The notes under the pieces are model-generated. The model was not told the origin of the DNA and did no database searches. It worked only from the letters and a program-made list of their open reading frames with translations. This document shows, piece by piece, positions 290-43,445 of a stretch of DNA of 64,000 nucleotides. The position numbers were made by a program, and so were the translations under genes. Source of the stretch: Marsupella aquatica (taxonomy: Eukaryota; Plantae; Marchantiophyta). How positions within the stretch are numbered: position 1 is the stretch's first letter; the number at the start of each line of letters is the position of its first letter. The DNA lies in contig OZ316892.1 in assembly GCA_973895155.1 (NCBI GenBank), forward strand, positions 15,740,861 to 15,804,860, given 5' to 3'.

Positions 290-527
290 ATCATTGAATG
301 GTGGGCCCCATTATGTTAGCATTTCAGAGAGCGCTTATATGGTTGTTATTTTTTAACATTGAGCCATTTTTTTGAACTTTGAATAACCTATAAAACTTGT
401 ACAAGTAAATAGTTTCTCGTATGAGTAAACAGATTTTCTGCTATGAGTAATTGAAAGCCTCATATGAGTAAATTTTTGCTCGTAACAGCAAATCTATTTA
501 CTATTTGCTGTCACGGTGGTTATACCC
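290..527. mobile_element. Transposase-side terminus of a MULE of the family at 24133-37305; the rest lies upstream of the window
   Basis: Sequence ending at 527 (atctatttactatttgctgtcacggtggttataccc) is the near-exact reverse complement of the end starting at 24133. Subterminal CTNNTANNAG units occur at 396, 416, 438, 459 and 479. LINE RT sequence begins right after. Confidence 0.8.
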
Positions 528-15328: not shown

Positions 15329-18300
15329 GAGGTGTTTACAAAAGGCAGGAAAACAGGAAACAAGCATTCATAACAGAAATTGATAACAGGGAAAAAGACT
15401 GGTAACAGGAAAATTGATGGCTCTTTCTTGCATGTTTTTCTGCAAAGTTACTTTTGAAAAAACAATTCTGGTAGCACCCGGCGCTGGTAAAAATAGCGCC
15501 AAAGGCGATGTTTTTTAAAAAGACACCAAAAAAACAAACAGGAGTAAATATAAGAAACTCGTAGCGGTAGGAACTCTCCACAATTATTGCTAGCGCTGGG
15601 CGCTGTGAAGAGTCTATAATTTGTACCAGTTGCACTCTCGGAGGATATTTAATGAAGGGGGTTATGAAACGTTCGATCTCGGAATGATATATATTTAACT
15701 CAATTATAATTAACCAAAACCTTTCAGTAGCGCCTGGCGCTACTCCCGGCGCTACTACAGTAATCCCACTAGACAACCATTGTCTATTCCAGCCTCCTCC
15801 CGATCAGGGTCTTTCCAGAAGCCATCTAGCTGCAAAGATCCATGACTGTTCCCGCAAGTTCACCTAATACCACAAAATTAGACGGAAAAAAAAACATTTA
15901 TGCAACCACAGCCTGCAAAGAATCCAAACCAAAGAACCCTTAGAAAATTGGGAAGCGCCCGATGCTAGCCAATATTGCACCTGAGAACACGTCTTCACAA
16001 CTCAAACTTCAAGAATCTGAAATGAAAATATAATAGTGACAGTATGTTTGAGGAGCGCCTGGCGCTAATAAAACTTGAAAGGGCTTAAAATCAGCCAATT
16101 CATCAAGATGGTTACATATTGAAACATTAAATGACGTATTTGAAGAAAACCCCATTGCTACCTATAAAGTATCAGATGTTTCTGATGCGGAGCTTTCAAA
16201 TCTGTCTGTGGACTCGGCTTCGTCATCAATGTACTTGCTTCGGGAAACATCATCTATATAAGGGTTCCTCATGAACTTCCTGTCTGCTCCCCTCTAAAGA
16301 TGTAGACCTTTTGTTTCCCAACAAAGTGTTCTAATTTTGTCAACCCTCCTAGCAGCATTTTCAGCGTATGAGGGCAAAACAAACGCTTCTCAGGAGTGAC
16401 AATTACATTCCTAGCTAGTCTCCTTCGGAGTTGGAAACGCTTCCTCAGATTCCATTCTGACCTGATCCAGTAAAACGGAAAAAAAATATAAGTATAGGGG
16501 ATAAGAGAGCAAGAACCCAGAATTGTCAACAACACTTGAAATTAAGGATAAAGAAGCTTACTGGGAGAACATTACTCGTCTGAGTCTTCGCTCTTCTCCG
16601 AAGAATCTTCCTCCTGGGTTTTCTCTGTGTCATCTCTGACGTCTCCAGAGGTACCTTCCTCTTCATTGGAATCAAAGTTGAGAATAGAGCGGAGCCTATC
16701 TTTCTTTTTGCGACCACTTAAATTGGTCGCGGGAGGAGGCAATATCGGAACATGCTTGGGATCAAGAAGTTCTAAGAAAACCCTTGATGCAGTCTCAACA
16801 AACTCACGCCTATTTTCCAACCCAATCACGAAATGACCAGAAAAATCACCAGCAATGAATATGCTTCCTGAACCTACAGTCCAGTCAAGGACAATATCTC
16901 CAAGAAGAGTAAAAAGCTCTATCACCAACTGCATAAAACCAACCAAAAGACAGGTGTTCCCAGCAAAATCCAACTCCGGGCAATGATCTGTCTTCAAGGT
17001 TGGGAGCCCAATCAAGTTAGAGATCGAAGGATCTTCACTTATTGATAGAGGCTTAAACCTTGGATCCTTTGGTACCTTTCCCTTTAAAGAAGTTCAACAA
17101 AATATGTCTAGCCTAAGGGTAAATACCTACACGCATCGCACACGTTTGGCTAAAATTATCAATCGACGGGTAATGTTTCGAGAACTACAACAAAGACTAA
17201 ATTAGCGTCGGGTGCTAACAATAAACAAGAGATGGAATGATCTGTACTTGAATATCGGTCTTTGCTCTGTACATGGGCATAGACATGATGACATTGTGAG
17301 AATTGACAGAATGGAACTTTTTTGACTGCTGGCATGCTAAAATGACCTGCGAGACCTGGTCATGGTCATCTAAATACAAGATTGCAAGCATGCCATCATC
17401 AGAAAGGAAAGGGTCCATCGCTTTGAAGAAAGAACTGGGAACTGTGTGGTCTAGTACATTCCACTTTGGAACCCGACGGTCCATGAGCGTAGGTTTAAGC
17501 CCAGTAGGAAGATAGATGAATCCTGCATTGACACCAAACGATCTTTCTTTTCCTCCTCTGATTACTCCCTTTTCTCGAGAACCCGACTTGATTAAGTCCT
17601 TTCCCCATTTCTCTGCATCAGTCACCCAATCTGGTTTTGCTGCTTTGTTGAAAGCAGTATCAATAAATTCTTGGATACTTGTTTCCACCATGCAATGCCT
17701 AGAAGATTTACTCTTGAAGGTTCCCACATCTCTCCGAACACCAGTTCCAGCGGCATCATCTCGGGAAGATTCTCCAGCTTGAATTGCCCTTTTCTTCTTC
17801 TTCTTTGTACTAGTTGCATCAAGAGGGACGATCTCTTTTGCTTTATCAATTGGAGTTACTGGGTCTGATTGGGCACCGGTATTGGCTTCGGAAGGCTCTG
17901 GAGTGGCATCTACTTTTGTTTCATTGGTTGCAGCGTCAGACTTTCTCCCACCTAAAGGAAAAAGAACAGAATTTATTTAATGCCGAATAATAGCGCCAGG
18001 CGCTGTCCAAACCAATTGAAAAAACAAACCAATAGACATAGTCATATAGCAGCGCCTGGCGCTAACCAAAATGTGAAGCTACAAGCTGAATGACAACTTA
18101 CATTTTTTGGCGGACCGCGTTGAGGTACTCAGTGCCGAAGCTTTGGTTTTTGCTTTGGCTCTGGGTTTGCGACTTCGATCAACATTAACAACCATAGTTT
18201 TGCACACCATTTGCAATTCTACCGCCGACTTGCTCACATCACCTTTGATTCCCTGCTTCATGTCGGACACAAACTTGGGAGGGACCTGAGACTTCGAAAG

Positions 18301-20117
18301 CTTATGAAATACATCTTTCTCAGTGTCTTCGAATGGAGAGTCCCGTCTATCGGTGTCCAAATACCATGGACAATGAATTCTCTCCCATTCTGATAGTTTC
18401 CTTGGTGAAAGACACCCTTCAGCGGGATACATTGAATACACGTCGGCCAGTATGTCTCCTTCAGGAACAATGATCCACTTTTGGAAAGCAGCAGGGTATG
18501 CCCAAAAGTAATCTGGCTTCACAATCTCCATATGCATGAAGAAACGGTATAGGTATCGTTTGGCCCTCTTTTGATTCTTGAGGGTGTAGTCAGCCTTGTC
18601 GGGATACTTGGAAGGCCACATTGTATTAAAAAACTTGTCTTTCACAGCGTCCCCGAATTTCTTGAAATCATTTGAGACTATTTCAATAAGCGATTCAATC
18701 AACTCACACTCCCACTCTTGCAACCAATTGGCGGGGACTATATCACTGACCTGGCGTAGGGAGGTTTGCAGCAAACCAATAGCGATTCCCTCCATAGTGT
18801 TCCAAGTTTGCCAGGTATGGCACCATTGCTTCACTGGATTGTCATTAACGCTCTATGGATGGAAGAATTGTTTCCTCAGCTCCGGTGTACAATGGGCAAC
18901 CAGAAGGGTACTCCTCAGCTTGGGGTCGAGGGTAGAGACAGCGGTAAACAATCTTGCTCGATCCATTGTACAAACAACTGCATCCGGCTTCTTCTCTCTC
19001 TTATTCTTCTCTATGAGGGGGTACATCTCGGCACATGTCCACATGAAATCCTTAAAAGTGGGGCTTAACAAAGGAGTTATTTTGGATACCTTTATAGCCC
19101 AATCCTTTGTTGCCTCCTTCATCATCACTGCATGTCTTTTTGAAATCTCTTTGGGAGACCAAGGTGTACACTGAGCGGCAGCATGTTCCAGATTCATCTT
19201 AAACTGTCGAGAATAAGACTTGATCTTATTCTCACACAAGATGTACAGAAGCGCTTCTTGAGGCATTTTTTTCGTATACCATGACCCCTTCCGTGTTTTC
19301 TGCATGATTTGTCCAAACTTCTTGAAGTTTGCAGCATCAATGATGGACTTGTAGTAATCAAGTTCATTCAAGAGAATTTGGTTGATATAGTCTACGTCAA
19401 GTATCCAAGAGGGTTTGACCACTGCCAGCCCAAGCCTGAAAACGAGAGAGGGAGTCAGTAGCACCCAACGCTAGTGAAACACTGTGATCATAGATTAGAA
19501 TAGAAATATGTATGAAGAGACACTTACTGGTTAACAGTGTGCATCGCCGCCTCAATCTCGATCAAGGACCCCTTTTCTCCCTTGAATATTGTGCTTTGGA
19601 CGCGAGGATGGTATTTCACATCATCCGGATTCTCCCTCGTGACGATGGACCATGCGTAGAGTCGATGGTTTCCATCAAACACAGAAAACATCTTATCTTG
19701 CAAAACTGCAAAGTCAGGGTCTGCAACACATTCTGCCTCAAACTTTTTGTTCTCTGCAACCCAAATTGCATCCCAAGAAGCACGAATCTCTGGCGTGCAG
19801 ATCTGGACTTCTCCATTGGAATCTGTTGGTTGGATGTAAAACAACATGTCGATCTTAGAATTGTATCCTATGCTCTGAAAGGAGTCTTTCAGCTTCTCTA
19901 TCGAAGGACTTCCCTTCTATAATGTTCGTACTACTTCCATATGAAGTAGTCGGCACATTGGAATCCTTGGCGGATCCTTGTCATGTCCTCTGAAATATTT
20001 CCCAAACGACATAATGTGTTTAGAGATCACATCATAAACTGTAAGCGACGTCTCTCCGAAGTCCTCCATAGCAAACGAATCAGAATCATCCATCTTCCCT
20101 CTCTTGCTCTTCGGGAA
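15329..20117 (-). mobile_element. Partial MULE copy C (ParB-MTase side)
   Basis: Start GAGGTGTTTACAAAAGGCAGGAAAACAGGAAA resembles the reverse complement of the 43354 end. Contains palindrome copies and a gene homologous to 33160-36973. Truncated at 20117 against an integrase fragment. Confidence 0.75.
16162..20117 (-). pseudogene. ParB/Srx-like domain plus beta-class amino-DNA-methyltransferase-like fusion, copy C (5 exons, 5-prime truncated)
   Basis: FSVFDGNHRLYAW...MHTVNQ (ParB-like). GVNAGFIYLPTG, FFKAMDPFLSDDGMLAIL and GFMQLVIELFTLLGDIVLDWTVGSGSIFIAGDFSGHFVIGLE (MTase motifs in IV...X-I-II order). Confidence 0.75.
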
Positions 20118-20737
20118 TGATACATCGCAAGACTACACCTTACAACCCCAGGGCTAATGGATTGACTGAACGAGCAAATGGACTAATGGGAAAAATCTTA
20201 AACAAAATGGTGGAAGCACATAAGACTGATTGGGATATCAAACTCCACTCAGCATTATGGGCCTATAGAACAGCAGAAAAGATTACAACTTTGAGGACTC
20301 CATTCTATTTAAACTTTTGGTTTGGATAGTATTGTACCCATCGAATTTGAAATCCCTACTGAGAGAATTCTCATTGATAAAAAATGGCAGAATCTGAAAG
20401 TCTTCAGATAAGGTTGGACAAACTAGATGAACTAGAAGAACACCGACTCTTGGCTTTGGATCATACCACTATTCAGCAAAGTAAACGGAAAACAGCATAT
20501 GACAGCAAATTAAAAACCCCTGTTCTTCAACAAGGTGATTTAGCCCTGGTTTATGATTCTCGTTATATGTTCTTCCCGGGGAAACTCCATACTCATTGGA
20601 TTGGACCATATAGAGTTGTAAAAGTATGGCCCAATGGATCATTATCCTTGGAAACTCTAAATGGAGAACCCCTTGATACTCGAATAAATGGTTTCCAAGT
20701 GAAGAAATACTACTTACCACACTCTAATGGCTTGTGA
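20118..20737 (+). pseudogene. Ty3/Gypsy integrase C-terminal fragment
   Basis: HRKTTPYNPRANGLTERANG, WDIKLHSALWAYRT and PGKLHTHWIGPY; homologous to the pol end at 58051-58750. Confidence 0.92.
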
Positions 20738-20766
20738 GGGCACGGCGCCACTTGAGGAGGGGGCTA

Positions 20767-23700: not shown

Positions 23701-24132
23701 GCTTGAAGAAGTCTTAAGTGTTTTTAGTTAGTTTTTAGAGTAGTGCATCTCATCTGATTTTTATAAAAGCGTTCTAGAGCTTTGGAAGCTGTCATACTTC
23801 TTTAGTGTATAGTCTGTACCTAGCAAAACCTCCTGGCAAAATCTCAGAGTTTTCTGACTTATAGTTAGGAAGTTAAAAATAGTTGAATTCATCAAATCTT
23901 TACTTTACCGCGATTACGAGTTACGAGTCAATGACCTTACGAGTTTACGACTTTACGTTTTTATGAGTTTACTAGTTTACGAGTATAAGTCATTTACTAG
24001 TTACTAGTTTACGAGTTCACACTTAGTCATTTTTCCGACTTTTCACTCACAGTTTTGTAGTTTTAAAATTTTGAGGGGTATGAAGAGGCATGTCTCTTCG
24101 ACCCTGTGACCTCTCACTCGGTAGATTTTTAC
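20767..24132 (+). mobile_element. Putative long 3-prime LTR, left part; interrupted by MULE A and resuming at 37315
   Basis: Polypurine tract GAGGAGGGGGCTA lies directly after the integrase and is followed by TGTAAG at 20767. TTACGAG/TTACGGG-rich repeats at 20940-21080 and 23910-24020. Confidence 0.6.
21277..23706 (+). pseudogene. Retrotransposon accessory ORF (~810 codons, several in-frame stops)
   Basis: Track ORFs starting at 21196, 22288, 22951 and 23323 are all in one frame. The N-terminal part (LLHIPWN..DFVK..IRAR..FG..NGW..C..LEF) aligns with the ORF at 54972-57575. Confidence 0.7.
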
Positions 24133-24171
24133 GGGTATAACCACCGTGCTAGCAAATAGTAAATAGATATT

Positions 24172-24325
24172 CTCATACGAGCCAATTTTGCCTCGTACAA
24201 GCAAAATTTTGTTTCGTACAAGTAAACAAGTTCCTCGTATGAGCATATCTATTTACTCGTACGAGTTTCTATTTTCTTGTATGAGTTTCTGTTTTCTTGT
24301 ATGAGTATTTTTTTTCTTGTATGCA
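24172..24325. repeat. Subterminal array of 10-bp CTYGTAYRAG quasi-palindromes, 20-22 bp period
   Basis: Units at 24172, 24192, 24213, 24234, 24256, 24276, 24296 and 24316. Confidence 0.8.
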
Positions 24326-25860
24326 TTTTAGTTTCTTCTCTTCACGGTATGTAGCGTCCATATATGCAATAATTGTGTGGACAATATTATGGTGGGTCCC
24401 ACCATTGTACAACATTAGAGGAAATTTCTCGACGATTTCACACAAGGACTCCAATATATTGCCACGAAATATGAAGTCAAAACAAAGTCATACAATACTA
24501 GCGCCTGGCGCTAGTATAGTATTATACAAAAAAACAACACTTTAAGAACTCACACTTCTGCCCGTTAGAAAAGACAAACTACAATTGTAGCTGTTCAACG
24601 ATCAAGCAACAGTCTACGTTCTCGTTCCCAACTGCCTATCAAGTATGTAACGGACTTCTCCCAACGTTAGAATTGGCTGGCTACATAATGTCGATTCGAG
24701 CACATCCAGTTTGAACACATTCTTGAACACCCAATACACATGTTTGCAAGGCATGTAAGGCTTCCGATAAGTATGTCGACGGTAGAAATCCTCGCAAGAG
24801 CAACATGGGAAACAACATATCTGAACCCAATAAGAGGCGACTGATCTCTCATGTTCATGGGTCCGGATACAAAACTGTTTCCCCGATGCATTTCCACTCG
24901 TGATCACTCTCTCTCCAATGACGCTCATCACTTCTTTTTCAGAGGCTTCAATTCTCTTCAAATGCGTTTGGGTAAGATGCACTCTTTGCAAGCATTTCTT
25001 CCCGTTCCTTGAAGCGCACCTCACAGATGGGTCAGTTAGGTTGATCCTCTCCGGGAAAAGATTGACATCAATCCGTAATGCAGAAGGCAATGGTGCTTCG
25101 ATTTCATCTCCACGGCCTTCGGAGAGAATAAGTCCTTGTTCTTTCAAAAATTGAATCTTTGCTCCAGAAAGATTGGTCCCTCTGGCAATTGGGAGATGTG
25201 AAGGAACATTGGGAATGTTCGGGACTCCTCTCCTTGTTGTGCTTCGGTGACAGTGGTTGTTGGGGCAAAACCATATCTGATCGTTATAAGGTTGCCCCCT
25301 GAACATTCTGCATCCTCTCACGGAAATTGCAACAACACCATCTGGATTCGGAAGACCAACCTTCTTTACTCGATTTTGACATTCATCACGACTACCTCCC
25401 CGTCCAAGGGTTCCGTTACACACTGGACCCGCACCCCGTTTTGAGGTCCGACGCAACTGCCAGGCACCGGGAGGTACTTCACTTTCCATTGGGGAAACTG
25501 AATGACAATATGCAGTCTCGACAGGTCTTGCAGGCGTCACTGGTGGGACAGAGGATCTCGTTGCTCGACGCGTAGGTGTGTCAATGACCACAACTTCCTC
25601 AGAAGCATCGCTTTCTGACAAATTATGGACCGCATCAATTCCACCGGCTGAAGGCGTAGAAGGCATTTTCTCGAAATCAGTGGAATGCAGGTTTCTCCTT
25701 TTCAAACCTTTTGTATTTGGTGAAGTAACAAGGATGGTATCATGCCTGTGCGAGTCTTCTGTCGAGACGTTCCCAGTTGCATGTCCTTTTTGTTTCACCG
25801 ATCGAGTTACAACATCACCATTCCATGGAATGCTTCTTTCCAAATCAAACTCAGCAGCGT

Positions 25861-28238
25861 TGTCACGCGATTGACATGGGTCTTAACACCAAAAACGTCA
25901 CTATGGGTGCCAAAACCATCTCCTTGTACCTGAGGATCACGAAGGGATGTTGTGAATGCCGGTAAACACCAGTTTATGCCCTTAACACCAGACTATCATA
26001 GCAAGACTCTATCACACATCGCCCAAGCTCAATCCCAAGGAACCGAGGTTGGGGATCAGATCTGCGCTCATGATAGTTCTGGTGAGAAGGGGTCTTCATA
26101 TCGGGCCCGTACACACAGGGCCTAGCGCTACGGTGCGCATAGGTCTATACATATGCTTACTGTCATAGGTATGTTTCTATTCCGCCGCCGGAATGTACCC
26201 ATAAACCAGTGACTCCTGACTGATTCCCGGCTTAGGGACTTCTAAGCCATTGCCCCACCACTCTGCCATTCCACTCTCAACAATCAGAGCTATGACAGTC
26301 CTCACCCAGCCCGCTTCAATGCACCCGGTACACCTCTCAGTGGCGCTGCTAGTTCCATCATACACTCAGATTGCCTCACACACACACACATCCATGAGAG
26401 AAATGAGGCCTGAGAGGAAAACTCAATTAGATTCAAAGATGTGCACAATAGTTCACTGAGAACACTTGATCCGAACACTAGGGCCGAAGGCTGTCTCCTC
26501 CAGATTGTGACGTGCTTGCCCTGCAAGCCCCGTGCTTGCCATGCAAGCTCAATCCTGAACTCAACCTCCTTCACTGCACTTCATTCTTGGGGGCACATAC
26601 AGATCTCACACCTCCAATTCAGAACGTCAAGTTACGCATGCATAGTTGACTCGACTTCAAAGCTGGTACCAGGCCTAACGGCGATCTACCCCAGACTGCA
26701 ATGAGGCCCGGCCTCACGCTTGCCCTGCAAGCTCAGCTCTGGCCATAGATCCCTTAGTGCTCTCCACCAGACAAAGGCCGGGACTCCCCATGGGTCACGT
26801 AGCCTTGCCAGACTGAACTGTAAATGCTCCTCCTGCTGCCCCTTAATCAGTACCTCAGCCTCCCTAATGTGCCCACCGCAAATCGAATTGAAATCCTCCC
26901 CACAGTTTACAATCACCAATACATCACCTATCACCAAGGCTCTGTATCGGGGGAAAAGAACCCAGTTGTGCTGCCCGCTAGAAAGAGCCACAATCCAGCT
27001 CGCAAACCTAGCAACCCGTTGCTGTGAAGCTTGGTTGATTACTCCCTGAGTATAGCACAACCAAGCTCTCCCCAACACGCAGCGTCCAAGTCCAGCCTTG
27101 CTTGCACAGAGCTCCTCCCCGCTACTCAGTCTAAGTGAGATCACACAACTGAAGTCCCCCCCTGCCTCTACCGGAGGGATGCTCTATATACTCTCTCATT
27201 GAGCCCAAATGGGTGGATGCTACGCTGTTGGAGCCCCATCCCAGCCCTAATAGAGCCGCCACTATCTCTAACTACTGAACCCTAACTCGCAACTTTATTT
27301 CTATCTCGAATTGGCTATGTACTTCGGATTCGGCCCTCCTCCATAGTTTTCGCGAGCTTGCGCCTCCTCTCCCGATTTCTCTATTTAACCATTTTCTGCG
27401 TGGATAGCAGCGTTGGAAGCGGCTTGAGCTCCTCTTTCCAACGAGGTCAATTATAGCCGATTTGGTCAAATACATAGAGAGTTATGCCCCCATAACCGAG
27501 AGGGGGTACTCACTATTGCGCTAACCCGAGTTACATAGCTAACCCGAGTTCGGCTAACCTAGCTATCCTATCTAACCCGAGTAGAGCTAACCCGTGGTCT
27601 CGGGTTAGGCCGTCACCCGCTATCCGCTATCCGCTATCCTAGCCTAAGCTGAGCCCGAACCCGAGCTTACCTATGCTAACCTGACCCCGAGTAAATCTAA
27701 CCCGGGATCAATCTAATCCGAACCCGGGTTAAGCCTAAGCTGAAGCCGTGCTTACCTAAGCTAAGCTGAAGCCGTGCTTACCTGAGCTAAGCTGAAGCCG
27801 TGCTGACCTAAGCTAAGCTGAAGCCGTGCTGACCTGAGCTAAGCTGAAGCCGTGCTCACATAAGCTAAGCCGTGGTCAAGCTTGGGTTAACCCGAAACTG
27901 AAGCCGAATCCGCTAATTCCGGCCACAAGTTAACCCGTCACACTAATCAGGCCGTATCTTTCTTAATACACCTCCGTTTCCCGAGTGTTTTATATCGATT
28001 TTACTCGCCTTGACCAGATCTTTCCAATGCTCTTTACAGATCCGGATTTGGTGACATATTGAAAGAGATATGGTCGCCGACCACCTGCGACATAGCTTTT
28101 ATTTCCCTACTCTTAACGCCATGATTGCCCTTATTCTTGCCATCTTGCTAATTGTTATGCAATATCAATAGCTACTCCTTGCATACAGCAACCTACTTAA
28201 TCAGATTACAAAATAAGGACCATGTCATTGGCGTCACA
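25861..28238. mobile_element. Solo LTR (2378 bp) inserted in the transposase
   Basis: TG...CA ends, 5-bp TSD AGCGT (25856-25860 and 28239-28243) and ~25-bp imperfect terminal inverted repeat. Removing it restores LLSNAAEFDL as in copy B. Confidence 0.88.
27737..27872 (+). repeat. 26-bp tandem repeat (TRAGCTAAGCTGAAGCCGTGCTKACC, ~5 copies) inside the solo LTR
   Basis: Directly visible; flanked by degenerate taacccgag repeats from 27520. Confidence 0.9.
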
Positions 28239-30983: not shown

Positions 30984-31127
30984 TAGCGCCTGGCGCTACC
31001 TCTATGTGTAAAACACCCTTGGGTGAGGACTACGAATGCCAATAATAATAGCGCCTGGCGCTACCTCTGGGTGCAAACATTCTTGGGTGAGGAGTACGAA
31101 GGCAATAAATAATAGCGCCTGGCGCTA
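30984..31127. repeat. Three perfect TAGCGCCTGGCGCTA palindromes in ~64-bp tandem units upstream of transposase A
   Basis: Copies at 30984, 31049 and 31113, with similar spacers (cttgggtgagga.tacgaa). Confidence 0.9.
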
Positions 31128-31589
31128 CCTATTTCAATGGACTTGAAAACATTCAATGGAAGGATAAGTACGATAACGCGATATAGTACGAGTCATTAAG
31201 TTGGCACGCTTTAAGATCTCCACTGGATCTTCGCGAATCCAATCCATCCGGGTCCAAATGTGTCAGAGATCGAGGAAGCGTCCACGAAAGTTATATCAGA
31301 GGGTCCTCTTCAAAGTGGGCAGCCAGGACCAAGTGCGAACTCTCCTTATATCTAGTCGTTCTCCTCCGATGTCCTCATTGTCAAGCCATTCTTTACTGAG
31401 TCGCAGTTGTGGCTCATCTTTCGGGCGTGTGGTTCCCGTTCTCGCATTCGGGCCCAGTTGTTCTTTTGGCTTTCGTGCACGTTCTTGTTCTCCTTCTCAT
31501 CCTCGTTTCTCATTCTCTTCCTAGTTCACGCTGTTGTCCTCCTTCACGTTCTTGTTCACGCTTCTTGTTCTCGTCCTAGTTCACTTTCA

Positions 31590-32012
31590 ATGGCACCTCC
31601 ACGGGGGAAGGCAAAGGAGGAGGCACTTGTCCCGAGTGACACCGACCGGGAGACCCCCGCATCAAATAGCTTACCGCCTCGGGACGAGAGGACGACGGTT
31701 CCAATCTCAAAGAAGGGGAAACTCATCTCAAAGATGAAGAATGCCCCAACTGTGGGACGCAGCGAAGGATCCAGTCGGCCAAATGCGAGCGGCCTGACTT
31801 CTGTTCCCGCTAGGGATATCGCCCATGCTTCAGTTGGCTGTCCAAGAGCCGACACTATCTGCACGGGAGTCTCTGTATCTTCTTCATCCACCGAGAGTGA
31901 TCGTTCTTCGAGCGGGGACTCATCACCGAGCAGGCAAGGATTTGCGTGGTATGGATTGAGCGACTCGAATGACGACTCTGATGCGTACAAGCCAAGTTGG
32001 TGGGAAGACTGA
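31590..32012 (+). CDS. Small Ser-rich ORF (140 aa from ATG) between the two MULE genes; function unknown
   Basis: ATG at 31590 after a pyrimidine-rich leader; MAPPRGKAKEE...YKPSWWED. No recognisable domain. Confidence 0.35.
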   Translation: MAPPRGKAKEEALVPSDTDRETPASNSLPPRDERTTVPISKKGKLISKMKNAPTVGRSEGSSRPNASGLTSVPARDIAHASVGCPRADTICTGVSVSSSSTESDRSSSGDSSPSRQGFAWYGLSDSNDDSDAYKPSWWED

Positions 32013-32337
32013 TTTCCCGGTGTCAGAGCGTCTCGTTCGAGTGCTGGAGAGACTTGGAGGATCCATCGAGGTTGATAGGATCTAATTCCACTCGTTTTTT
32101 TCCGTTACAAAACCCATACCGTTCCTTCCTCGTATGTCGGATTTCTAGTGTATTGTAACATTTTGTATATGAACGGCACAGCCATTCGTTTTTACCCTGG
32201 TGTCAATGCTTTTGAATTCAGAAGACCAAGCTTTAATTTTGGGTTCTACTCCCGTGTTTGCATTGTATTTTTGAATGCGAAACTGATCTATTTCTTTGAA
32301 ATGGCCGTAAACACTCGTTTGCTGTCAATGTTTTTAC

Positions 32338-32773
32338 TAGCGTTCGGCGCTATTATGACAAACAAAGTGTCCATAACACTGTCATGACATGTCTTATCTC
32401 TGAAGTGTTTTTGATAGCGTTGGGCGCTATTAATGAAAGGAATCACAAGTCAAACCCGTTCGGAGTTATTTTTACTTTTATTTCAACAAAGTCTGTTCAA
32501 TTGATGTGCATTTTAATAGCGCCAGGTGCTATTGTAATTCATTGGAATATTCGTTGAATGAATGGGTTCATGTGGTCATGTTTGTTGTCATTGGACTCCG
32601 ATTTCATCATTTATTTGGATACTAGCGCCGAGCGCTACTAAAGTTGGCTTGTCGACTCCTGCACAAAATTGGAAAATTTATAGACACTTGTGTTGATAGT
32701 ACTGTCCGAAGCTACATTAAGATGGTTTTTTAGATACATTTGAAAGTATGTTGTATAATAGCGCCTGGCACTA
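32338..32773. promoter_or_regulatory. Cluster of five degenerate TAGCGCCNGGCGCTA palindromes upstream of the ParB-MTase gene
   Basis: Copies at 32338, 32415, 32517, 32623 and 32759. The regulatory role is inferred. Confidence 0.65.
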
Positions 32774-33159
32774 TCCACAACTACCGACACTGATGTGGTT
32801 CCAACGGTCACTTTCCAACGGTAATATTATAGTAGATTGAGGTTCACGGAACCCTTTTTGCTTTTGTCTGGGATGAAAGTCCAATCGGAGAATGCCATCT
32901 GTACTTGGGACCGTTGTAATCGAATGGCTGGTTCCAATGTATCAGTGTCTTAATACGAGGTGGAGATCGCTTGTTTGGGATAATTTAGTCCGTCTACGCG
33001 CTCAGACCTCGGACTGTACGAGTTTGTCAAGTGCGTATGTGCATCTTTTATTGGTCCCGTACATTTTGAGACGTGATCGTGACAAGAACTGCACGGCGCG
33101 TCCGGCAGTGCCTTTGGTCAGGCGCTCTCCACGACAACTTTTGGCTGGGTGATACGAGA

Positions 33160-36100
33160 ATGGGGGAGGCTGATGGTGGTCATTCTGAGTCCTCTCAATC
33201 TTCGTTTGCTGGTTCAGTATACACCCGTCACGTCACTCGATCGGCTGCATCCCTATCGACTTCCGAAGCTGAATCTGCACAGCCCTTCCCGAGGTCGAGG
33301 AGAGGGAGAATGGACCCTAAGGACGTCTCCATGGGTGAAGTCAGTGACATAGGCTTATCGATAGACGAGGTAATATCAAAGCACGCATTGTCGTTCGGGA
33401 AGGATTTTTGAGGATTCGATAAGGAGCCACCTTGAATTCCTCTTTGTAGATTGCTCCCCATGGAGGTTGTTCGAACCTTACAGAAAGAAAGTGCATCGAT
33501 CGAGAAGTTGAAAGAATCATTCTGTGTCACCGGGTACAACTCGCGCATTGGGATGCCTTTCTACGTTCAGCCTGCGAATGCCGATGGGGTTTCTTATATA
33601 TGCACCAGCGAGATCCGGGACTCTTGGGATCCAATCTGGGTCGCAGAGAACGACAAGTTTGAGGAAGAGTGTGATGCGGACCCAGCATTCCATATTCTAA
33701 AAGATAAAATGTTTTGTGTGTTTGACGGAAATCATCGATTGTACTCGTGGTCAATCGTCACGAGAGAGAATCCAGACAACTTGAAGTATCATCCTCGTGT
33801 GATTTGCGTCATTTTCAATGGTGACAGAGGTTTGCTAGTTGAGCTCAAGGCGGCAATGCACACCGTGAACCAGTAAGTTCTATTCGTTAACTGTTGTTAC
33901 CCCTATCATTCATTTTGGACCAAACATGCTTTGTGAAAGTGTTCGTTCCCCAATTTTTGCTAGCGCCCGGCGCTACTAATTCCTTTTCATTGCATCCAGG
34001 CTTGGACAAGCAGTCGTTGAGCCTTCCTGGATTCTTGACGCGGACAGAATTTCCCGAATTCTATCGCGTGATCTTGATCACTATAAGCCACTCATCGACA
34101 GCACGAACATGGCAAAGTTTGAGGCGATCCGAAAGAAGACGAGAAAGGGGTCTTGGTTTACACATAAAATGCCACAGGATGCTCTCATCTACATTCTGTG
34201 TGTGGACAAAATCAAGTCTTACTCAAATCAATTTAAGTCTGATATGGCTTTAGCCAAAGCTCAAGGGGCTTCTTGGTCAGAAGAGGAGACCACAAAGAGG
34301 CATGAGGCAATGATGAAGGTGGCGACCAAAGATTGGTCGATCAAAGTGACGAAGATCACCCCTTTACTTCATCCGGATTTTGGAGATTATTTGGGAACCT
34401 GTGCTGAGATGTATCCCGTAACTGAGAAGAACAAATGGGAGAAGAAGCCAGACACAGTTGTATGCACAATGGATCGAGCCAGGTTGTTTATTGCTGTTTC
34501 ATACCTGGATCCAAAATTGAGGTGCACCCTTCTAGTAGCCCACTGCACTCCCGAGATTCGGAAACAGTTTTTCCATCCTACAAGTGTCAACGACGAGCCT
34601 GTGAAGCAGTGGTGCCATACATGGCATACTTGGAATTCTGTGGAGGGAATTGCAACTGGAATGCTTCACACTTCTTTCAAACAGATTTCTGACCGGATGC
34701 CGGCTGACCGTCTCACAAAGTCTGGGTGTGAGTCAATGGAGGCCATGCTTAAGATCATTCTCGATGAATTCAGAAACTTTGGGGATCTTGTCAAGGCAAA
34801 ATTCTTCAACAACTTGTGGCCTTCCAAATATGCGGACAAGGAAGATTACACAGAGCGGAACCGGAAGAGAGCCAAACGATATCTATACCGGTTTTACATG
34901 TGGATGGAGCTTAGATCTCCTGACACTCTGTGGGCATACCCGGCTGCATTTTAGAAATGGGTGTCTATCGAAGAGGGAGACGCTCTTGCCAACCTTTATT
35001 CGATGTACCCAGCGGAGGGAAAGTTTCCACCACGTTCATTGTCGGAGTGGGAGAGACTTCACTGTCCGTGGTACCTCAACACAGACAAATGGGATTTACC
35101 GTTCGACGAAGCTGAGAAGGATGCCTTCATGAAGTTGCAGAAGTCCCAGATCCCTGCCAACTATGTGTCTGCAATGAAGCAAGGTCTCCAGTCTGATGTT
35201 GACGAATCTGCATCTGAGTTACAGAAGAATTGTGAGTCTCTTGTCATGCACGTTGACCGAAGCCGTAAGCCAAGAGCAAAGGCGAAGAATGAGTCGGCTG
35301 CACCAAGTGACTCCACAAGGTCCTTCAAGAAAAGTGAGTAGTCTAAGCGCTTTTTGGTTACTTGTTGGCGTTGCTTATGCAGGAGTTTTATTTGGAAATT
35401 CCTTTGATTAATAGCGCCTGGCGCTAGTCTGAAAGGTTGGACTCATTCAAGTTTCTGTGCCTAATAGGAGGTCGAAAGTCCGACACGGAGGTCCCAGCTG
35501 CCGAAGGGAAGAATGATGCAACTCCTCAGGCATCGGAGGCAAACACTGGAGCTCAAGAAACCCCGGATCAAGGGACCCCGGATGGTGCTGGAAAATCCAT
35601 TGTCCCTCTTGACGCAACTAGCACGAAGAAAAAGAAAAAGAGAGGCGCCGGTGAGGACAGAGCAGCATCATCTACTCGAGACGTTATTTCCTGTGGACTC
35701 CAGAGAGATGTCGGGAATTTTAAGCGAAGGTGTTCTAGACACTGTTTTGTGGAGTCCAATTTAAACGAATTTTACGATTCGGTATTTAACAAGGGGATGA
35801 AGCCCATGTGGGTTACTAAAGTTGAGGCCTAGGGAAAGGAATTGGTAAAGTCAGGAGACAGAGAGAAGGGAGTAATGCGTGGCGGAAAAGAGAGGGGCTT
35901 TGGTGTGGATGTTGGTTTCATCTACATTCCCACTGGATTAAAACCAACACTTCTTGATCGGAAGGTTCCCAAGTGGAACCTTCAGGATTACACTATTCCC
36001 AGCTCTTTCTTCCGAGCCATGGAGCCGTTCCTTGCAGACGATGGCCTACTTGCAATTTTACACAGAGGAGACTATGATCAGGTATCTGAAGTGATTGCGG

Positions 36101-36973
36101 CTTGCCAGGATTCTAAGTGTTTCCAGTGTATTTCAACCCACCATGTGGTCATGACTACACCAATGTATAGGCCCCGATCTGATACTCAGGTAACAATTCC
36201 TCTTGCACATACTAGCGCCCGACACTACTATCAGCATTCGCAATATCTACAATTCACTGGGCTGGAAAATCGGCCAGAGTTTGTTGATACTTCCGGTAAG
36301 GTCTTCCTCGATCTTTTACAGAACAAAGAAGTGGTTGCACCAACTCCTCCTAAGAAGATTCCTGGAAGTAAGAAGCAGGACAGGCTCCGTGCTATTCTAA
36401 ATTTTGATTCGGAAGATGAGGATGAGGGTGGAAATGCTTCTCAGCAATCTAAAGATGATGAGGTGTCGAAGAATGTGGTGGACCTTGGATCTGGAGATGA
36501 GGACAGTGAAGAGTCAGAAGAGTAATTTTTTTTAGCTTTCTTTCTCTCATTGTATACTTTTTTCCAAAAAACTCCTCTACTCCCTTTTGTCTAGAAAATT
36601 CGCCCGATTTCCCGACTTCGACTAAAGAACTCCAGTTCAAATTCTCAGGTCAGAGTGGAATCTTCGGAGGCGTTTTCAACTTCGAAGGAACGTCTCTAGG
36701 AACGTTGTACAGACCCCGGAGAAGCCATTTGTTCTCCCCTCTTATGCTGAAAAGGCGGCACGACGGGCAGATTTAGTCAGGACGCTTACTTGGGAGAGTA
36801 AGGGTCTTAGACTTAGGAGAGGCTCAGATAGAAAGTTTGTGCAGAATCACTTCGTAGATGATATTGCAAAATCCAAGTATGTGGACGACGAAGCAGAGTC
36901 CACTGATAGATCAGAAAGTAGCGGTTCTGAATCGGGCTCAGAGTTGAGTGGTGGTTGTGGATCTGGTCTTTAG
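33160..36973 (+). pseudogene. ParB/Srx-like plus amino-MTase-like fusion, copy A (exons ~33160-33872, 34000-35333, 35469-36189, partial ~36253-36522, 36649-36973)
   Basis: VRTLQKESASIEKLKESFCVTGY...FCVFDGNHRLYSW...MHTVNQ; GVDVGFIYIPTG; FFRAMEPFLADDGLLAIL. GT-AG splicing keeps the frame and matches copy C. The SAM-binding segment is deleted. Confidence 0.78.
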
Positions 36974-37314
36974 TTTTCCTTATTTTATTTACCCGTTTAT
37001 GGAGAACGACGACACTCAATAAGAACGCCGTGACGTGTCGGATTGGAGTAGCGCTCGGCGCTATTACTGTAGCCGGTAGTTCAAAGAGGTTTTTATTTGG
37101 TTGTTTTCCTTATAGCGCCCGGCGCTAGTATAAATGTACTCAATGGCCGCTTCACGTCCAATATATGTGATAATATTTTCATACCCTTTGGTGTCTTTTT
37201 TGGGTGCACATTTGCTGGTATGAGTTTTGTTGTTTGCTGTTTACTGTTTGTTGTTTGCTGTTTACTGTTTGTTGTTTGCTGTTTGCTGTCATGGAGAGAT
37301 CCCCCGATTTTTAC

Positions 37315-38154
37315 TATAAGATACCTCCACCACTAGTGTAGTTTATGGTAAAGTCTAGCAATTTTTGCCTTTCCTTGGTGCTCTGCCAGTTGATCATGAA
37401 TGTTAAGAGTTCGAGATCAAGCTTGACACCAGGAGAAGACTTTCCTCCTTCTTGTGGTTTAATCCTTTGAATAAATCATGGGAAGTAAAATTCCAATTGT
37501 GTAAATCTTATGAGATCTAATGACAGATTCCTCTTTGGGTGACTCATTACAATCTCCTGAGTTCTTGGAGTTAACTCACTGAGTTTAAGTCTTATTTGAA
37601 ATTGATGGATTTTCTTTCATGTTGCTTAGTACCATCTAAATGTTGAAGTAGCTACCTTTTAGATCTTATCTGAGTACCACTTAGAAAGAAAGGATAAGAC
37701 ATGTTGACGGCATTTTAAAAGGTACTCTAGTAAGCAATTTAGATCTGAAAAGCAATATGGATTTGTATCCTTAAGTCTTTTCATTTTGACTTATGTCTAA
37801 GGAGTAACCTTGGAAAATTCCAGACTTCCTTAGCATACTTTAAGATATTTTTCCTTGTGTTTTGTTAATCATTCCATTTTCATTAATTTATGGTTACATG
37901 ATGCTGAGTTGTCATTTAAAACCACTCACCGCTGTGGAGCGATCTTCAAAATACCTTATTAAAGTAATCAATTCTGATTACTATGTGTTAAAGAGAGTTC
38001 TTAAACTCTCATTTGTGTTTTTATGTATCAAATCAACCCCATCTTGTTCTTTACGGGAACGAATACCGAGTTTGAAGACCTTTAAGTGTGTTTTTGGTTC
38101 TTCATAGCAAACTACAGACAACACCAAAGAGGATCGATGTATTGAGGGTCACAC
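37315..38154 (+). mobile_element. Putative continuation and end of the LTR begun at 20767
   Basis: Resumes after the MULE TSD with a TATAA element and lacks the MULE palindrome. The CA end near 38154 is approximate. Confidence 0.5.
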
Positions 38155-41100
38155 AACCTATAGTTACCGTTGAATATGACCATTGAAAGGAAAACCTGAG
38201 AATAGATCGAATTCATTTTTACTCACCAAATAGTAGCGCCCGACGCTAGTAATTTCCAAGGCCTAAAGTCTTCAATTTTTAAGTCAGTTGGGTATTCAAA
38301 ATAGAGCCATAAGAGGCATTAATACGCCATTACTTTCCCCAAAACCCTGTTTTCTCATATTTATGATACAAAAGAAAACTAGCGCCCGACGCTAGCAAAA
38401 AAAAAGCCTTTTCAGCCTTTTGAAGGCTCCCACTTCAAAGTTTACCATTGTATACATTGATAGTATGAATGAAATCAATATTAGCGCTTGGCGCTAATCA
38501 TCCAGTGTCTCCTTTAGGAATTTGTTTTATGTCATTTGCTTTTATTAGCGCCTGGCAGTACACACAAATTGCCGTTAGATGGACCCTAAACTTTTGGATT
38601 GTTATTAATAGCGCCAGGCGCTACACATAAATTGACTCTGCATGGGCCTCTACTTTTGGATTGTTTTTAATAGCGCCTAGCGCTATTCATCATCTGATGT
38701 TTCTAGAACAAAAGGGTTCTTCCTAAATGACATTTATTGTAAATGACGTTGATCATAAATGACGTTGATATAACGAAAAAATACATTTATTGTGTCAGAG
38801 GATTGTCTTATTATAACGGCTTTATGGAACTATTAGTCAGGATCGATAACAGTCCTTGCCCGCGGAATTTTGATTCATAATTTTCTTGCGCTCATTTGCT
38901 TCCAAGGCTTTTGTGATGTCTCAGTCAATCGTAGTTACCCGTATGTCCACCGGTGACATTGTTTCCATTCCAATGTCTATGGCCGAAAGGTACAGGCAAA
39001 TAAGTGAGGTTTATCTTTGTGGAAGGTTTGATTTGCGCATGAATGACATAGAGGCAATCGTTCAAGAGGGAACGGAAGCCAATGACTTCAAATCTGTTGC
39101 ACTTTTTGATGTCGATGATGGGGTGAGATTCTGGCACCTTAATGCTGGGTTGCGCTACTCCATTGTCATTCAAGAACCAAATCAAGGAGATCGACAATCC
39201 CCTCAGAGGGATCCGGTGGATGTAGTTACTCTTTCCGATAGTGATGATGAGGAGCCACCAAGGATCCCCCTTGTGGAGCCTTCGGCACCTGACGTGGTCT
39301 TGGTCAAAGAGGAGATGCCATCGTCGCAATCCCATATTGTATACCGGAGAAGTGCAATGGACGTGCTGCTCAAGTCAACTGGGTCCAGCAAACTTTTGAG
39401 GTTCATTTTGGCTGGAAACTTTCCGGCATGAACAAGTACCTTGTTTGCCTCCGAAGTACAATGGAAACGTAGTGTTTGAGTTGCCTCCATCGTCGGGAAT
39501 TCTTTCAAAAGGATCCCGTCTACGGGACATGGACTAAACCAAGGATTGCTATATCTGGACTAGAATATTTCCTACCACTACAAACGTGCAGCCCAAGAAA
39601 TACTGGGAATTTGGTAAAGTTACTTGTACTGGATTTATTGAGTGCAGGAATAAAACTTGTGACTACTTCCGCCGAAAGAAGAGGAGGAATGCAAAGGCAT
39701 GGGCTGGTACCCCAAAACTTGGAGGCTCTCACCGTGTTGGATCGTTCATTGAGCAGGGTGGAGTTGTTTGTCATTATTGCCAGGAGCTCCCTTTTTGTGT
39801 AGAGGCATGCTCTACGAGACTATTTTATATGTATCCTCAAGTTCTGCTTGACTCAGATACCTGTAGTCACATGTCTCGCCTTGCGATTCATATGGGGGTA
39901 CAACCATCCTTGTCGTAAGGTATTTTCTTGGAGTGCGGAAAAGGTAGTTGAAGATGTCATAAAAAAGAAATTGGAAGGCAATCTGACTTGGACGCCTGCC
40001 GGGATTAAAAATGTAGCGACAGGATCTTTTGTACAGTCTTTGTGTGAGAGCCTGGGTGAGATTGAAGATATCGAAGAGACAGAGATTTTCCAGTCTCTAA
40101 TGGTAGTTTCTACTCCACAGGAGTTTGCATCTCTTTTCAGGAGTGTTAGGCAGGACCAGAAAGGCCGTGGAGAGTTGGATTTTCTTGTTCGATATCAAAA
40201 GAATATCAACATGCCTTTTCTACAGAGGTACATGATCCTTCCAGGTCAAGGATCTCAAGAAGACAGACCTCATATATTTAAGATGACTTCCAAAGGCCAT
40301 GGGTTTGGGGTGGATCTTTTGCGGCAAATGCAACCTGGAGGGATGCTTGAAGGTGCCTCGGTAAGCTTTGATGTCCTGAAACGAATGACCAAGGATTGGG
40401 TGACTTTCAGCGCACGCGTTTACGATCACAATTACCGCGCATTGTGTACAATATTTACTTGCAAGCTAAAAACTGAGGACACGACGTCGTTCGAGAAGGC
40501 TTGGAGATTAATGATTGAGGTTTCCAAAGAGAATGGGTTAGATAATCCAACCATTCGTGGCTTCATGGCAGACAATGCCCAAGCCGAATGGTTAGCAGTC
40601 CGAAATGTTTTTTTGGGAGGGCAGCCAAACCCTGAACGGGAGAGGACGGACGCTTTTCATTTTTACCAAGCTTTTCATCGCCATTCTGTTGAAGGAGTGT
40701 TGGAAGAGAAGCAGGTGGAACACTGAATGCTATGGGATAAATTACGGAACGCACCAACATTTGTAGAGGCTTACCGACTTTCAAGAGAGATTGACCTATG
40801 GTGGCAGTCGGGTAACTGCTTACCTGGAAAGCTCCGAATGCTTCAGAGTTGGTATCGTGGTGGGTCGTGCGTTGGAGGCAGTGGGGAAATTTTATTTGCT
40901 TGGTGAGTAATAGCGGCACTAGTAATATGCAAGTCAGATTCCTTTGTAGAAGTACATTTTTCACATGACATTCCTCAACATTCCATCCAAAGAATCCAAA
41001 TAATGTAATTGATTCTAAAATATTGACTTGTTTATTTCCATAAACATGTGATTACACAATAATATTGATGGTTTTGTCAAAATGTTCTGCCTAGCGCCTG

Positions 41101-43354
41101 GCGCTAGTATGTTTTGTGGATTCTTACTAGTGTTTATGCTTTGTCATTCCAAGACAAAAGTGCTGAAGAAGGCGCTAGGATTCCTAATTGTACCAGATCA
41201 GAGTCTGTTCACGCAGGAATGAAAGCATGGGTAATGAAAAAAAAAGTTGGGCTCTTCGAGGCATGTGAAATGGATCAGAATCGAGCTATATTGCAGGTTG
41301 CAACATATACCGCATATCGGAAAGGATTGAGTAGAGAAAGAGGTCCTACAATATGGAAACTGGCTTTCCGTTCAGCTGACCAGGCAGGTTCCCCAAAGTT
41401 GTTCGAGGATGCGATGAACATGCTCCTCTCCAATGCAGCTGAGTTTGACTTGGAGAGAAGCGTTCCTCTCAACGGAGATGTTCTAACAAAGTTTGTCAAG
41501 AGGAAAGGACCTGCAACTGGGATTGTCTCGCCACAAGACTCCCACCGGCATGATAAAGTCCTTATCACATCGCCAAATACCAGATCACTCAAGCGTAAAA
41601 ATCTGCACCACACAATGTTTGCTTCCGTATCGGAAGAAAACCCTGATGACATTTCCGTTGTCAATCTCTTAGGAAGTGATGATTCGAGGGATGCAGAACG
41701 TGATGATTTCAGTACACCGCAGGGTCGACATCAATCACGTTCAACACAATACCCACAAAGTGCTCCCACTGTACTTTAGCAGACATCGCTCCAATCTCCA
41801 GTTCTTGAAACAAAAGTCATGCAGGGTTCATGGCATCTGCGTCGGACATCAAGATTTGGGGCCGGTCCACAGTGCAACGGGTCATTTGGCGGTAGTTTCG
41901 AGAGAGATGAGTGAAAAAAATAGAGTGAAGAAAGTTGGGTTCCCCTCATCAAACGGTGTCATCGGCATTGTTGTCAAAGGACAACGCATGTTCAGGGGGG
42001 AACCCATAGCCAAAATGATATGGTTCTGCCCAAACAACACATGTTATCGGAGCCATCCCCGCCGTGGTGTAGTGAACGTGCCCTCCTTTCCTGATGTTCT
42101 TCCTGTTATAAAAGGAACAAATGTTTCGGAAGCTGAGATGAAGTATCTTGTTGTCCAGGGAATACCTATAGCCCAAGGAAGAGACGGTACGTCCTCTACC
42201 TCCACCATCACTTTTTGAGCTTTGAATCAACGTAAACTTATTTCCAGAGAGAGTCAATCTTCTGGAACCCACTGCTTGTCTCCGAAGTCGGAATGGAAAG
42301 AACATGGTTCCTCGATCGACCTTGACCCATGGTCACATGAAGAGGATTGAATCTGCAAGAAAAGAGACCATGTCCGTCCAGGGACAGTGGGATGTTTCTA
42401 TTGGGAACTCATGGGGGAAGCAATTCAAAGTACAAACACATGGGAATCTAAGGATGCCAAATAGTTACTTCGTGCAGATTTGTATTTTCCCGACTTGTTC
42501 TTGTGAGGATTTCTATCGTCGACATTCTCGCAGACATCCATATATATATGCCTTGCAAACATTTGTACTGGGTTTTCCAGACCGTTTTCAAACTAGACGT
42601 TGAGGAATCTACTTTGACCAGCCAACCAATTCTCACAGTTGGAGAAGTTCGACTGATCTTGGAGAGGGAGAATGCTCATGGTTTATAGAGAAGGATATAT
42701 TTGTCCTATACTTGAAACGGTTATATTCGTTTTTGTCGTATTACAACGGTATAGTTTTATGTTAGCGCTGGGATGGAAGTCTTCCTTATTATCATTTACT
42801 TCATTGTAATCCTATCACTACAAATGATATTTTAAATTTTTGTTTCCCACATTCTGCATTCATCCAATGTCATTTTCTAAATGTGTTGGTTGTTTCCATT
42901 TTAGCTAGCGCCAGGCGCTAGCCCATCGTTGGTGGTCTTTCAAATTGTCCGGAGTTTTCATTTGTGGTTTTCTGCCTTATTGTTGGCCTATAATATTATG
43001 TTACTTATGGTGGGACCTACCATGTCAATGTTTTTTCCCATGATATTCACTGGTAAATGTTTGTGTGTCTGTGGTTTTTGGGACACTATTTTCCAGAAGT
43101 ATGTTGGTGACTCCGGACTCACTTATCATCAGACAACAGTTGTTGCCGTGTTAGTTGGTTCTAAGCTCTAGAATGTAAATGAAGCGCAATGCATATTGCT
43201 TTTTTTCAGATGTATCTGGCTTGAAGTAATGAAGTATTATCCTGTTCCAATGACTAACTTTTCCTGGTAACAGCAACATATTCCTGATAACAGCAAAAAA
43301 AATTATGCTACCAAAATTCCTGTTTTCCTATTTCCTGTCTCGGTGGCTATACCC
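38155..43354 (+). mobile_element. Partial MULE copy B (transposase side)
   Basis: Palindromes at 38234, 38380, 38482, 38546, 38609, 38671, 41092 and 42906. Terminus ...cggtggctataccc at 43354 matches the GGGTATAACCACCG end of copy A. Confidence 0.82.
38916..42688 (+). pseudogene. MULE transposase copy B (GCM-like, DDE, SWIM), frameshifted; intron ~40903-41153
   Basis: Colinear with copy A: SFDVL, FMADNAQAEWLAVRNVF, DAFHF, NCTRSESVH, CSCEDF..PCKHLYWV. Confidence 0.85.
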
Positions 43355-43445
43355 GCGAGTTCTCAGGATAATATCTTTCTGAAATTCATTTTTTACCATA
43401 TCACTTTTAGCTAGCAATCTCGCTAACATGGGAATGTTGTGGCAG

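Follow-up and report, generated by a model that had tools for sequence, protein, structure and literature searches.

A subfamily-specific palindrome in the non-coding DNA of a liverwort Mutator-like element encoding a predicted ParB-fold, methyltransferase-like protein

A 15-bp palindrome, TAGCGCCNGGCGCTA, is a real, selected and subfamily-specific site in a land-plant-type Mutator-like element (MULE) of the liverwort Marsupella aquatica, and by analogy with known systems its most likely reader is a protein of the element itself, in which a predicted ParB fold is joined to a pseudo-methyltransferase domain. The palindrome lies in a 64,000-nucleotide stretch of contig OZ316892.1 (assembly GCA_973895155.1, forward strand, positions 15,740,861 to 15,804,860; hereafter the window), where an earlier, sequence-only reading had described it as a parS-like motif confined to the non-coding DNA of MULE copies. 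All eleven perfect copies reported there (15728, 24499, 30984, 31049, 31113, 33961, 35412, 37113, 38609, 41092 and 42906) are present, and each of the 14 degenerate copies listed carries one to three mismatches. Counted at up to three mismatches, the window holds 36 sites where 0.96 would be expected, and no shuffle out of 100 had as many, so that a chance origin can be rejected.

The sites were placed on a hand annotation of the window into element non-coding DNA, element exons and other DNA. On this annotation 35 of the 36 sites fall within 6,322 bp of MULE non-coding DNA and none within 14,011 bp of element exons, which bears out the proposed confinement; the other 38,592 bp hold no perfect copy and a single site with three mismatches (at 26116), which is the level of chance. 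One of the 35 element sites, at 190, lies beyond the range covered by the earlier reading, in the 3′ end of a further copy. As had also been claimed, introns 1–3 of the two accessory-gene copies A and C, and the introns of both transposase copies B and D, hold at least one site each (Table 1); the earlier account of the introns, however, had missed a fourth. Its picture of the palindrome across gene copies likewise stands for A and C, but a third copy, E, lacks it (no site in 4,146 bp). Some palindromes form tandem arrays (30984–31127, 38546–38685, and 2585–3098 of the related locus L028 described below) with a 62–65-bp period, about six helical turns, and unrelated spacer sequences.

The palindromes align at equal positions in the introns of the two elements, AD and BC (A1 with C1, A2 with C2, A3 with C3, and the transposase intron of B with that of D), with extra sites gained or lost around these matched positions, and synonymous sites between AD and BC are saturated (proportion of synonymous differences, pS, 0.79–0.84). 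In contigs of other family copies aligned to 32320–32790 there are 31 variable places: one is among the 75 motif bases and the other 30 are among the 396 flanking bases (p=0.03). The change at the single variable motif base is one back to the consensus. The degenerate forms at 32338, 32415, 32623 and 32759 have no listed variant and therefore seem common to the family. Together with the confinement to non-coding DNA, the position-matched intron sites and the low polymorphism of the motif support the earlier suggestion of selection for a dimer-type DNA site.

The accompanying idea that the CCNGG core is a methyltransferase target found no support. In a tally of 70 half-sites, taken from sites picked at up to three mismatches, the outer A, G and C (positions 2–4) showed 0, 1 and 3 changes, against 7, 9 and 11 at the inner G, C and C, the inner C's being the most variable positions. 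Since the inner bases change more than the outer ones, the conserved part is the outer arms; CCNGG, the least conserved part of the palindrome, was rejected as its key feature. The core is also absent from the palindrome of copy E, and the catalytic motif of the methyltransferase-like domain is replaced in all 21 aligned rows. Thirty of the 37 half-site changes are C to T or G to A.

The element itself is best seen in its complete copy, BC. A perfect 9-bp target-site duplication, GTAAAAATC, flanks it on both sides, and its empty site is represented by contigs that join 24123 to 37306 in four of the four public runs used, one of which may be the window's own source. The terminal repeats are degenerate, both ends beginning with GGG and matching at 20 of 35 bases. 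By inspection, the transposase carries the DD..DxxH..E residues (SFDV, MADNA, DAFH, SESxH) and a SWIM-like finger (CSCEDF...CKH); the transposase pieces scanned gave no match to the MULE or SWIM models of Pfam. The DDE signature of MULE transposases includes (C/D)xxH, and the terminal inverted repeats of these elements can be degenerate or missing. Mutator-like elements are described as making target-site duplications of 8–11 bp, and with its 9-bp duplication, degenerate terminal inverted repeats, and DDE signature with zinc finger the element fits a MULE as defined there (PMC6446971).

Transposase B (minus strand) and accessory gene C (plus strand) face away from each other. As the target-site duplication pairs 24133 with 37305, B and C are parts of one element and A and D of the other, and a grouping of A with B was rejected. 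The older element AD, for which we looked for a target-site duplication and found none, is interrupted by a long terminal repeat (LTR) element and by BC: BC lies within the LTR element, the LTR element within AD, and AD within intron 1 of accessory gene E. Three transposase 3′ ends, at 527, 24133 and 43354, share one terminal sequence. Every accessory-gene and transposase copy in the window is broken; the deletion in C has taken away the last part of intron 3 together with most of the exon 4 sequence for motif I. The 2.4-kb insertion in transposase B (about 25856–28239) is absent from other copies (the joint was found in three of the four runs), is covered by many contigs and contains a 26-bp tandem repeat at 27650–27896. 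Near the element ends (15336–15412, 37233–37282, 43290–43338 and 485–511) we noted short subterminal repeats, ACAG[CG]AAA, which are distinct from the palindrome and are candidate transposase sites as judged from their sequence and position.

Related copies carry different palindromes. Copy E, of which the ParB exon and the transposase are not in the window, has a 14-bp palindrome, TAGCRA-NN-TYGCTA, with a 2-base spacer and in both orientations; its intron 2 has no copy. At up to one mismatch this motif matches four times in the window (0.36 expected), and the looser pattern TAGC-N5-8-GCTA gives three sites in the 1,272 bp of E non-coding DNA, a number reached in none of 2,000 shuffles (mean 0.014). 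Intron 4 of E (46269–46735) is much longer than those of A and C, and an A/T-tract-rich stretch in it may be a small insertion. We also compared 31 loci from metagenomes (17 clusters, 7 with at least 4.5 kb upstream) that have a related transposase. L028, the only one of the 31 with a detectable ParB exon, has the same divergent layout and, between its two genes, a 64-bp repeat of about eight units. In the seven aligned units the core varies only between C and T and between G and A, and, with such decay allowed for, the units can be read as a 22-bp palindrome with the core GCGCCGGCGC, symmetric at 20 of 22 positions against 12 of 22 at the best control offset. This is the window's GCGCC half-site without the spacer, at a period like that of the 62–65-bp arrays. 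The motif thus differs between related families, as in VANDAL-type elements. No cluster of GCGCC-type sites was found in the other 30 loci by a scan that is weak on decayed DNA, and a scan of the 31 loci for perfect repeated palindromes missed even the decayed array of L028, so that its blanks are weak. That scan gave a satellite in L021 and three-copy matches in L003, L009/10/12 and L022, for none of which a link with the element was made. L021 has, 5 kb downstream of its related transposase (14176–19078), a 72-bp satellite of 68 copies with imperfect GATTG-N5-CAATC inverted repeats. The tandem-site pattern had no match in metagenome contigs or prokaryote genomes.

The accessory gene has five exons, a small downstream open reading frame (ORF) being spliced in frame as the fifth. 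A search with exon 2 among 1.84 billion representatives returned 112 relatives, and 7 of the 10 looked up are proteins of the liverwort Riccia sorocarpa. The structural model of one Riccia homologue, P0119, is confident over residues 10–580, with a predicted local distance difference test score (pLDDT) mostly above 85 in the N-terminal domain. When residues 10–182 were compared with 48,161 solved chains, the top four matches were all ParB/Srx proteins (Z 5.4–6.7): KorB (Z 6.7, root-mean-square deviation 3.1, 95 residues aligned), PadC (6.5), Pnob8 ParB (6.0) and sulfiredoxin (5.4). This result supports the claim that the palindrome-bearing element encodes a ParB-fold protein. The arginine of the GxxR box (DGNHR) is invariant in 10 of 10 rows, and a downstream asparagine is conserved. 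In the helical domain of about 400 residues that follows, the DNA-binding regions of SopB and Spo0J appear at Z of about 4, among unrelated helical matches. ParB was not detected by sequence search of solved structures; Pfam scans of the accessory protein and its homologues gave no ParB or DUF3723 match, NCBIfam gave DGQHR at E 0.16 only, a viral structure library gave nothing at E≤0.001, and exon 3 of A, as the query of a word-based protein search, had no match among the longer proteins. The gene was not found in viral contigs.

Between A and C every domain of the accessory protein is under purifying selection (proportion of nonsynonymous differences, pN, 0.17–0.22; pS 0.81–0.84), and the gene is under no less constraint than the transposase (pN 0.25–0.32). 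Exon 5 (16161–16461, 36649–36973 and 46736–47088) ends in an acidic motif, YVDDEAE in C and FIDDEA or FVDDEA in Riccia, which by its sequence is possibly a short host-protein-binding motif.

The C-terminal domain is related to beta-class amino-methyltransferases, with motif IV preceding motif I. Foldseek placed CcrM and M1.HpyAVI as the best matches (E 1e-4 to 8e-4, on a poor model with a mean pLDDT of 49), Pfam N6_N4_Mtase (PF01555) scored above its cut-off in P0122 and P0128, and PHROG DNA-methyltransferase families matched the C-terminal part (E 4e-9 to 1e-5). A motif-I-like glycine loop is kept. The consensus usually given for the catalytic motif IV of this class is (D/N/S)PP(Y/F/W), and none of the 21 aligned rows keeps it: the window's three copies read YLPT, YIPT and YLPI, and the Riccia proteins mostly DLPS or DMPT. 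To judge from these replacements the domain is likely inactive. Amino-methyltransferases other than this domain have been described in eukaryotes (PMC4738411, PMC8885841).

What reads the palindrome, and to what end? The symmetry of the site and its independence of orientation in double-stranded DNA suggest a dimeric reader, and confinement to one family, with a different site in E, points to a reader encoded by the element. Of the two element proteins, the ParB fusion seems to us a better candidate than the transposase, because the majority of sites are internal (introns and central spacer) while the ends carry ACAG[CG]AAA, and because the transposase of AtMu1 binds terminal repeats (10.64898/2026.08.24.746577), VANC binds intronic and intergenic motifs, and ParB-fold proteins bind palindromes. 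A dimer of the accessory protein would thus bind the palindrome of its own subfamily; given the conserved GxxR arginine and downstream asparagine, it may load there and slide in a nucleotide-dependent manner, with the methyltransferase-like domain serving as a non-catalytic binding or dimerising module. The bound protein would keep copies of its own subfamily expressed despite host silencing, as VANC does for VANDAL elements. We give this proposal, which draws on analogy with VANC, a little less than an even chance of being right.

The outcome of binding, anti-silencing as opposed to KorB-like repression or bridging, is a matter of analogy only. The same protein on the same sites could instead act as an autoregulatory repressor in the manner of KorB, or could form a clamp by which the element is compacted or bridged for transposition. 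KorB shares first place with PadC among the structural matches; as a CTP-dependent sliding clamp it represses the genes of its own plasmid from distant operators (PMC11790492), and the site clusters in the window lie upstream of both divergent genes. We nevertheless consider this alternative unlikely, since VANC and TnpA, the precedents from plants in which motif arrays occupy the non-coding DNA of an element, activate and hypomethylate, and no KorA-like partner was identified. Unlikely, too, is binding by the transposase, through its Cys/His-rich N-terminal region, for transposition or activation. MULE transposases do bind motifs and activate cognate copies, as reported for AtMu1; palindromes lie near both ends as well, and E would have had a different transposase. 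The terminal-repeat binding of AtMu1, however, contrasts with the mostly internal sites here and with the ACAG[CG]AAA ends, and the decayed GCGCC-type array occurs, within the limits of the weak scan, in the sole locus with a ParB exon and not as a cluster in the other 30.

A host transcription or chromatin factor, for which sites accumulated as enhancers or methylation shields, would suit the intronic and upstream placement and the recurrence of the GCGCC half-site in the distant relative L028; against this, the 38.6 kb of other DNA has no perfect site and one chance-level site, and copy E of the same genome has a different spacing and core, which leaves this reading with a small probability. 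It is very improbable that the fused methyltransferase is active and writes N4-methylcytosine or N6-methyladenine at or around the CCNGG core: its relation to CcrM and M1.HpyAVI, the purifying selection and the glycine loop speak for activity, but the catalytic motif is lost throughout the alignment, and CCNGG is the least conserved part of the palindrome and absent from that of E. Equally remote is a function of the palindrome as a small hairpin, in RNA or in single-stranded DNA, which might for instance act in splicing. Its sequence allows a 6-bp stem and a 3-base loop, and the three bases at its centre are the most variable; among the 11 copies that lie in introns, however, stem changes on the transcribed strand gave four G-U pairs and five mismatches, and we rejected the RNA hairpin for this lack of pairing bias. 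Many sites also lie outside genes, and the motif of E has a 2-base spacer and both orientations.

Several observations weigh against the favoured reading, in which the ParB fusion binds the palindrome and counters silencing. Restricted to the inner part of the region, the polymorphism test is weaker (1/45 versus 30/342, p=0.10). The observed/expected ratio of CpG is 0.74 in element non-coding DNA (motif masked), 0.67 in exons and 0.66 in other DNA; the element is therefore not specially poor in CpG and, being about as CpG-depleted as its neighbours, bears no lasting trace of protection from methylation. Intron 4 has no palindrome in either copy (A, about 16462–16575; C, 36522–36648). The ParB Z-scores of P0119 are modest, all below 8, and Foldseek ranked ParB first without significance (E 0.4 and above). 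A fold search found no clear helix-turn-helix in the helical domain (the best Atlas match, 0.81, was uninformative). As the transposase of E is missing, the motif of E cannot show which protein co-varies with the site, and the L028 palindrome is a reconstruction from decayed repeats at one locus. The description of the palindrome as 'parS-like' accordingly holds as an analogy and no further: neither a clear helix-turn-helix nor a ParA partner was found, the complete element BC holding the transposase and the accessory gene, with no ATPase family among the element ORFs scanned.

Parts of this arrangement have precedents. In red-algal Plavaka, Mutator and Zisupton transposons a ParB-like accessory gene, PAG3, lies beside inverted-repeat arrays, and self-binding has been proposed (Petroll et al., 10.1101/2025.02.11.637652). 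Compared by its published description, the PAG3/PAG2 system shares with ours a ParB-like N-terminus, adjacent tandem inverted-repeat arrays and a PF01555 methylase in the element; PAG3, however, is fused to a 2-oxoglutarate (2OG) oxygenase, and there the methylase, which has a SET domain, is encoded by a gene of its own. In our element a single protein of a land-plant-type MULE combines a ParB fold with a catalytically degenerate PF01555-like domain, and the palindrome is dispersed in introns as well as tandem, and varies between subfamilies. A ParB gene beside inverted repeats had thus already been proposed; the land-plant MULE ParB–pseudo-methyltransferase fusion with a dispersed palindrome is a new variation. 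In the open-access literature, outside which most subscription papers fall, we found no account of this fusion or palindrome in a MULE of the land-plant type.

Within its own VANDAL family, VANC binds motifs that lie in introns, between genes and in terminal regions (PMC5735166); these elements are likewise MULEs with degenerate terminal repeats, an accessory protein and family-specific non-coding motifs, which arise partly via tandem repeats. Its motifs are 8–9-bp non-palindromes with demonstrated binding and hypomethylation, whereas the accessory protein of the present element would act in this way by analogy and combines a predicted ParB fold with a methyltransferase-like domain. Pfam gave only N6_N4_Mtase and the fold search ParB/Srx; on this indirect comparison, homology to VANC is therefore unlikely. 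With KorB-OB of RK2 and ParB-parS the element shares a ParB/Srx nucleotide-binding fold with GxxR and palindromes within its own mobile element (PMC11790492); an OB oligonucleotide used there, TTTAGCGGCTAAA, also has TAGC/GCTA arms, a resemblance only. In contrast to these systems, the gene here is eukaryotic and spliced, with no ParA found, no identified helix-turn-helix and no segregation role, and nucleotide binding would follow by analogy.

ParB::N6_N4 methyltransferase fusions are reported to be common in phages, and nucleotide preference cannot be predicted from the sequence of the ParB/Srx fold (PMC12704722); the main text of that report nowhere contains 'transpos'. The ParB-CTPase::N6_N4 fusions of phages and prophages have the same domain order, from ParB fold to PF01555-type domain, and as judged by sequence such a fusion is a plausible ancestor. 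The element protein differs from them in its roughly 400 extra helical residues, long linker, lost catalytic motif and eukaryotic transposon carrier. DUF3723 of fungal Starships is likewise an accessory gene of a large eukaryotic transposon (10.1101/2021.12.13.472469). By language-model features the ParB-containing part of P0119 (residues 20–330) is closest to DUF3723 clusters (0.97; 192/256), hinting that DUF3723 may also be ParB-like; this is a lead only, the Pfam DUF3723 hidden Markov model having given no match.

Two further features of the window may be recorded. Just inside the right end of BC (24158–24327) lie a 100-bp imperfect inverted repeat and a 20-bp tandem repeat. At 21175–23706, antisense to the integrase end of the LTR element into which BC is inserted, there are long ORF pieces that matched no Pfam model.

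Table 1. Elements, genes and palindromes in the window (positions counted from its first nucleotide)
Feature	Position	Strand	Remark
Right end of further copy	1..527	+	Transposase 3′ end, decayed palindrome at 190, common terminal sequence ending 527
Older element AD	15336..43354	+	Left end approximate; right end ...CGGTGGCTATACCC at 43354
Five palindromes, left subterminal region of AD	15472..16067		15472, 15591, 15728 (perfect), 15953, 16053
ParB-fold/helical/methyltransferase-like gene A, five exons	16161..20122	-	5′ end cut by LTR element
Palindromes in introns of A	17203..19473		17203 (intron 3), 17991 and 18050 (intron 2), 19459 (intron 1)
Complete Mutator-like element BC, 2.4-kb insertion inside	24133..37305	-	9-bp target-site duplication GTAAAAATC
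Perfect palindrome downstream of transposase B	24499..24513		
Transposase B, two exons, intron ~28529-28817	24614..30810	-	Broken by stops and insertion ~25856-28239
Three palindromes, intron of transposase B	28604..28778		
Three perfect palindromes, 64-65-bp tandem repeat upstream of transposase B	30984..31127		
Five palindromes upstream of gene C	32338..32773		1/75 bases variable among other family copies
ParB-fold/helical/methyltransferase-like gene C, five exons	33151..36973	+	Broken by stops and deletion
Palindromes in introns of C	33961..36227		33961 (intron 1), 35412 (intron 2), 36213 (intron 3 remnant)
Two palindromes, left subterminal region of BC	37049..37127		
Six palindromes upstream of transposase D	38234..38685		Three within 62-63-bp tandem repeat
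Transposase D, intron 40903-41153, broken	38916..42690	+	
Perfect palindrome, intron of transposase D	41092..41106		
Perfect palindrome downstream of transposase D	42906..42920		
Distant gene copy E, mid-intron 1 to exon 5	43355..47088	+	34-36% amino-acid identity to C
E-type palindrome TAGCRA-NN-TYGCTA, intron 1 of E	43412..43425		
Two E-type palindromes, intron 3 of E	45614..45717		45614, 45704

To our knowledge, the only transposons proven to recognise and de-silence their own copies do so through VANC, TnpA or the transposase itself. The element described here offers a defined protein, a 15-bp site, a natural specificity control in the 14-bp site of E, and named homologues in Riccia sorocarpa, itself a sequenced liverwort. 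If the protein slides like ParB, this would account for the action of an accessory protein along the full 11 kb of an element and may provide a new sequence-specific tool for the plant epigenome. A bolder and more doubtful proposition is that land-plant Mutator elements domesticated a phage-type ParB::methyltransferase as a nucleotide-gated sliding clamp, which would load at private palindromes and spread to block silencing, protein and palindrome co-diversifying. Should that be true, a bacterial ParB/parS mechanism would be at work on eukaryotic chromatin.

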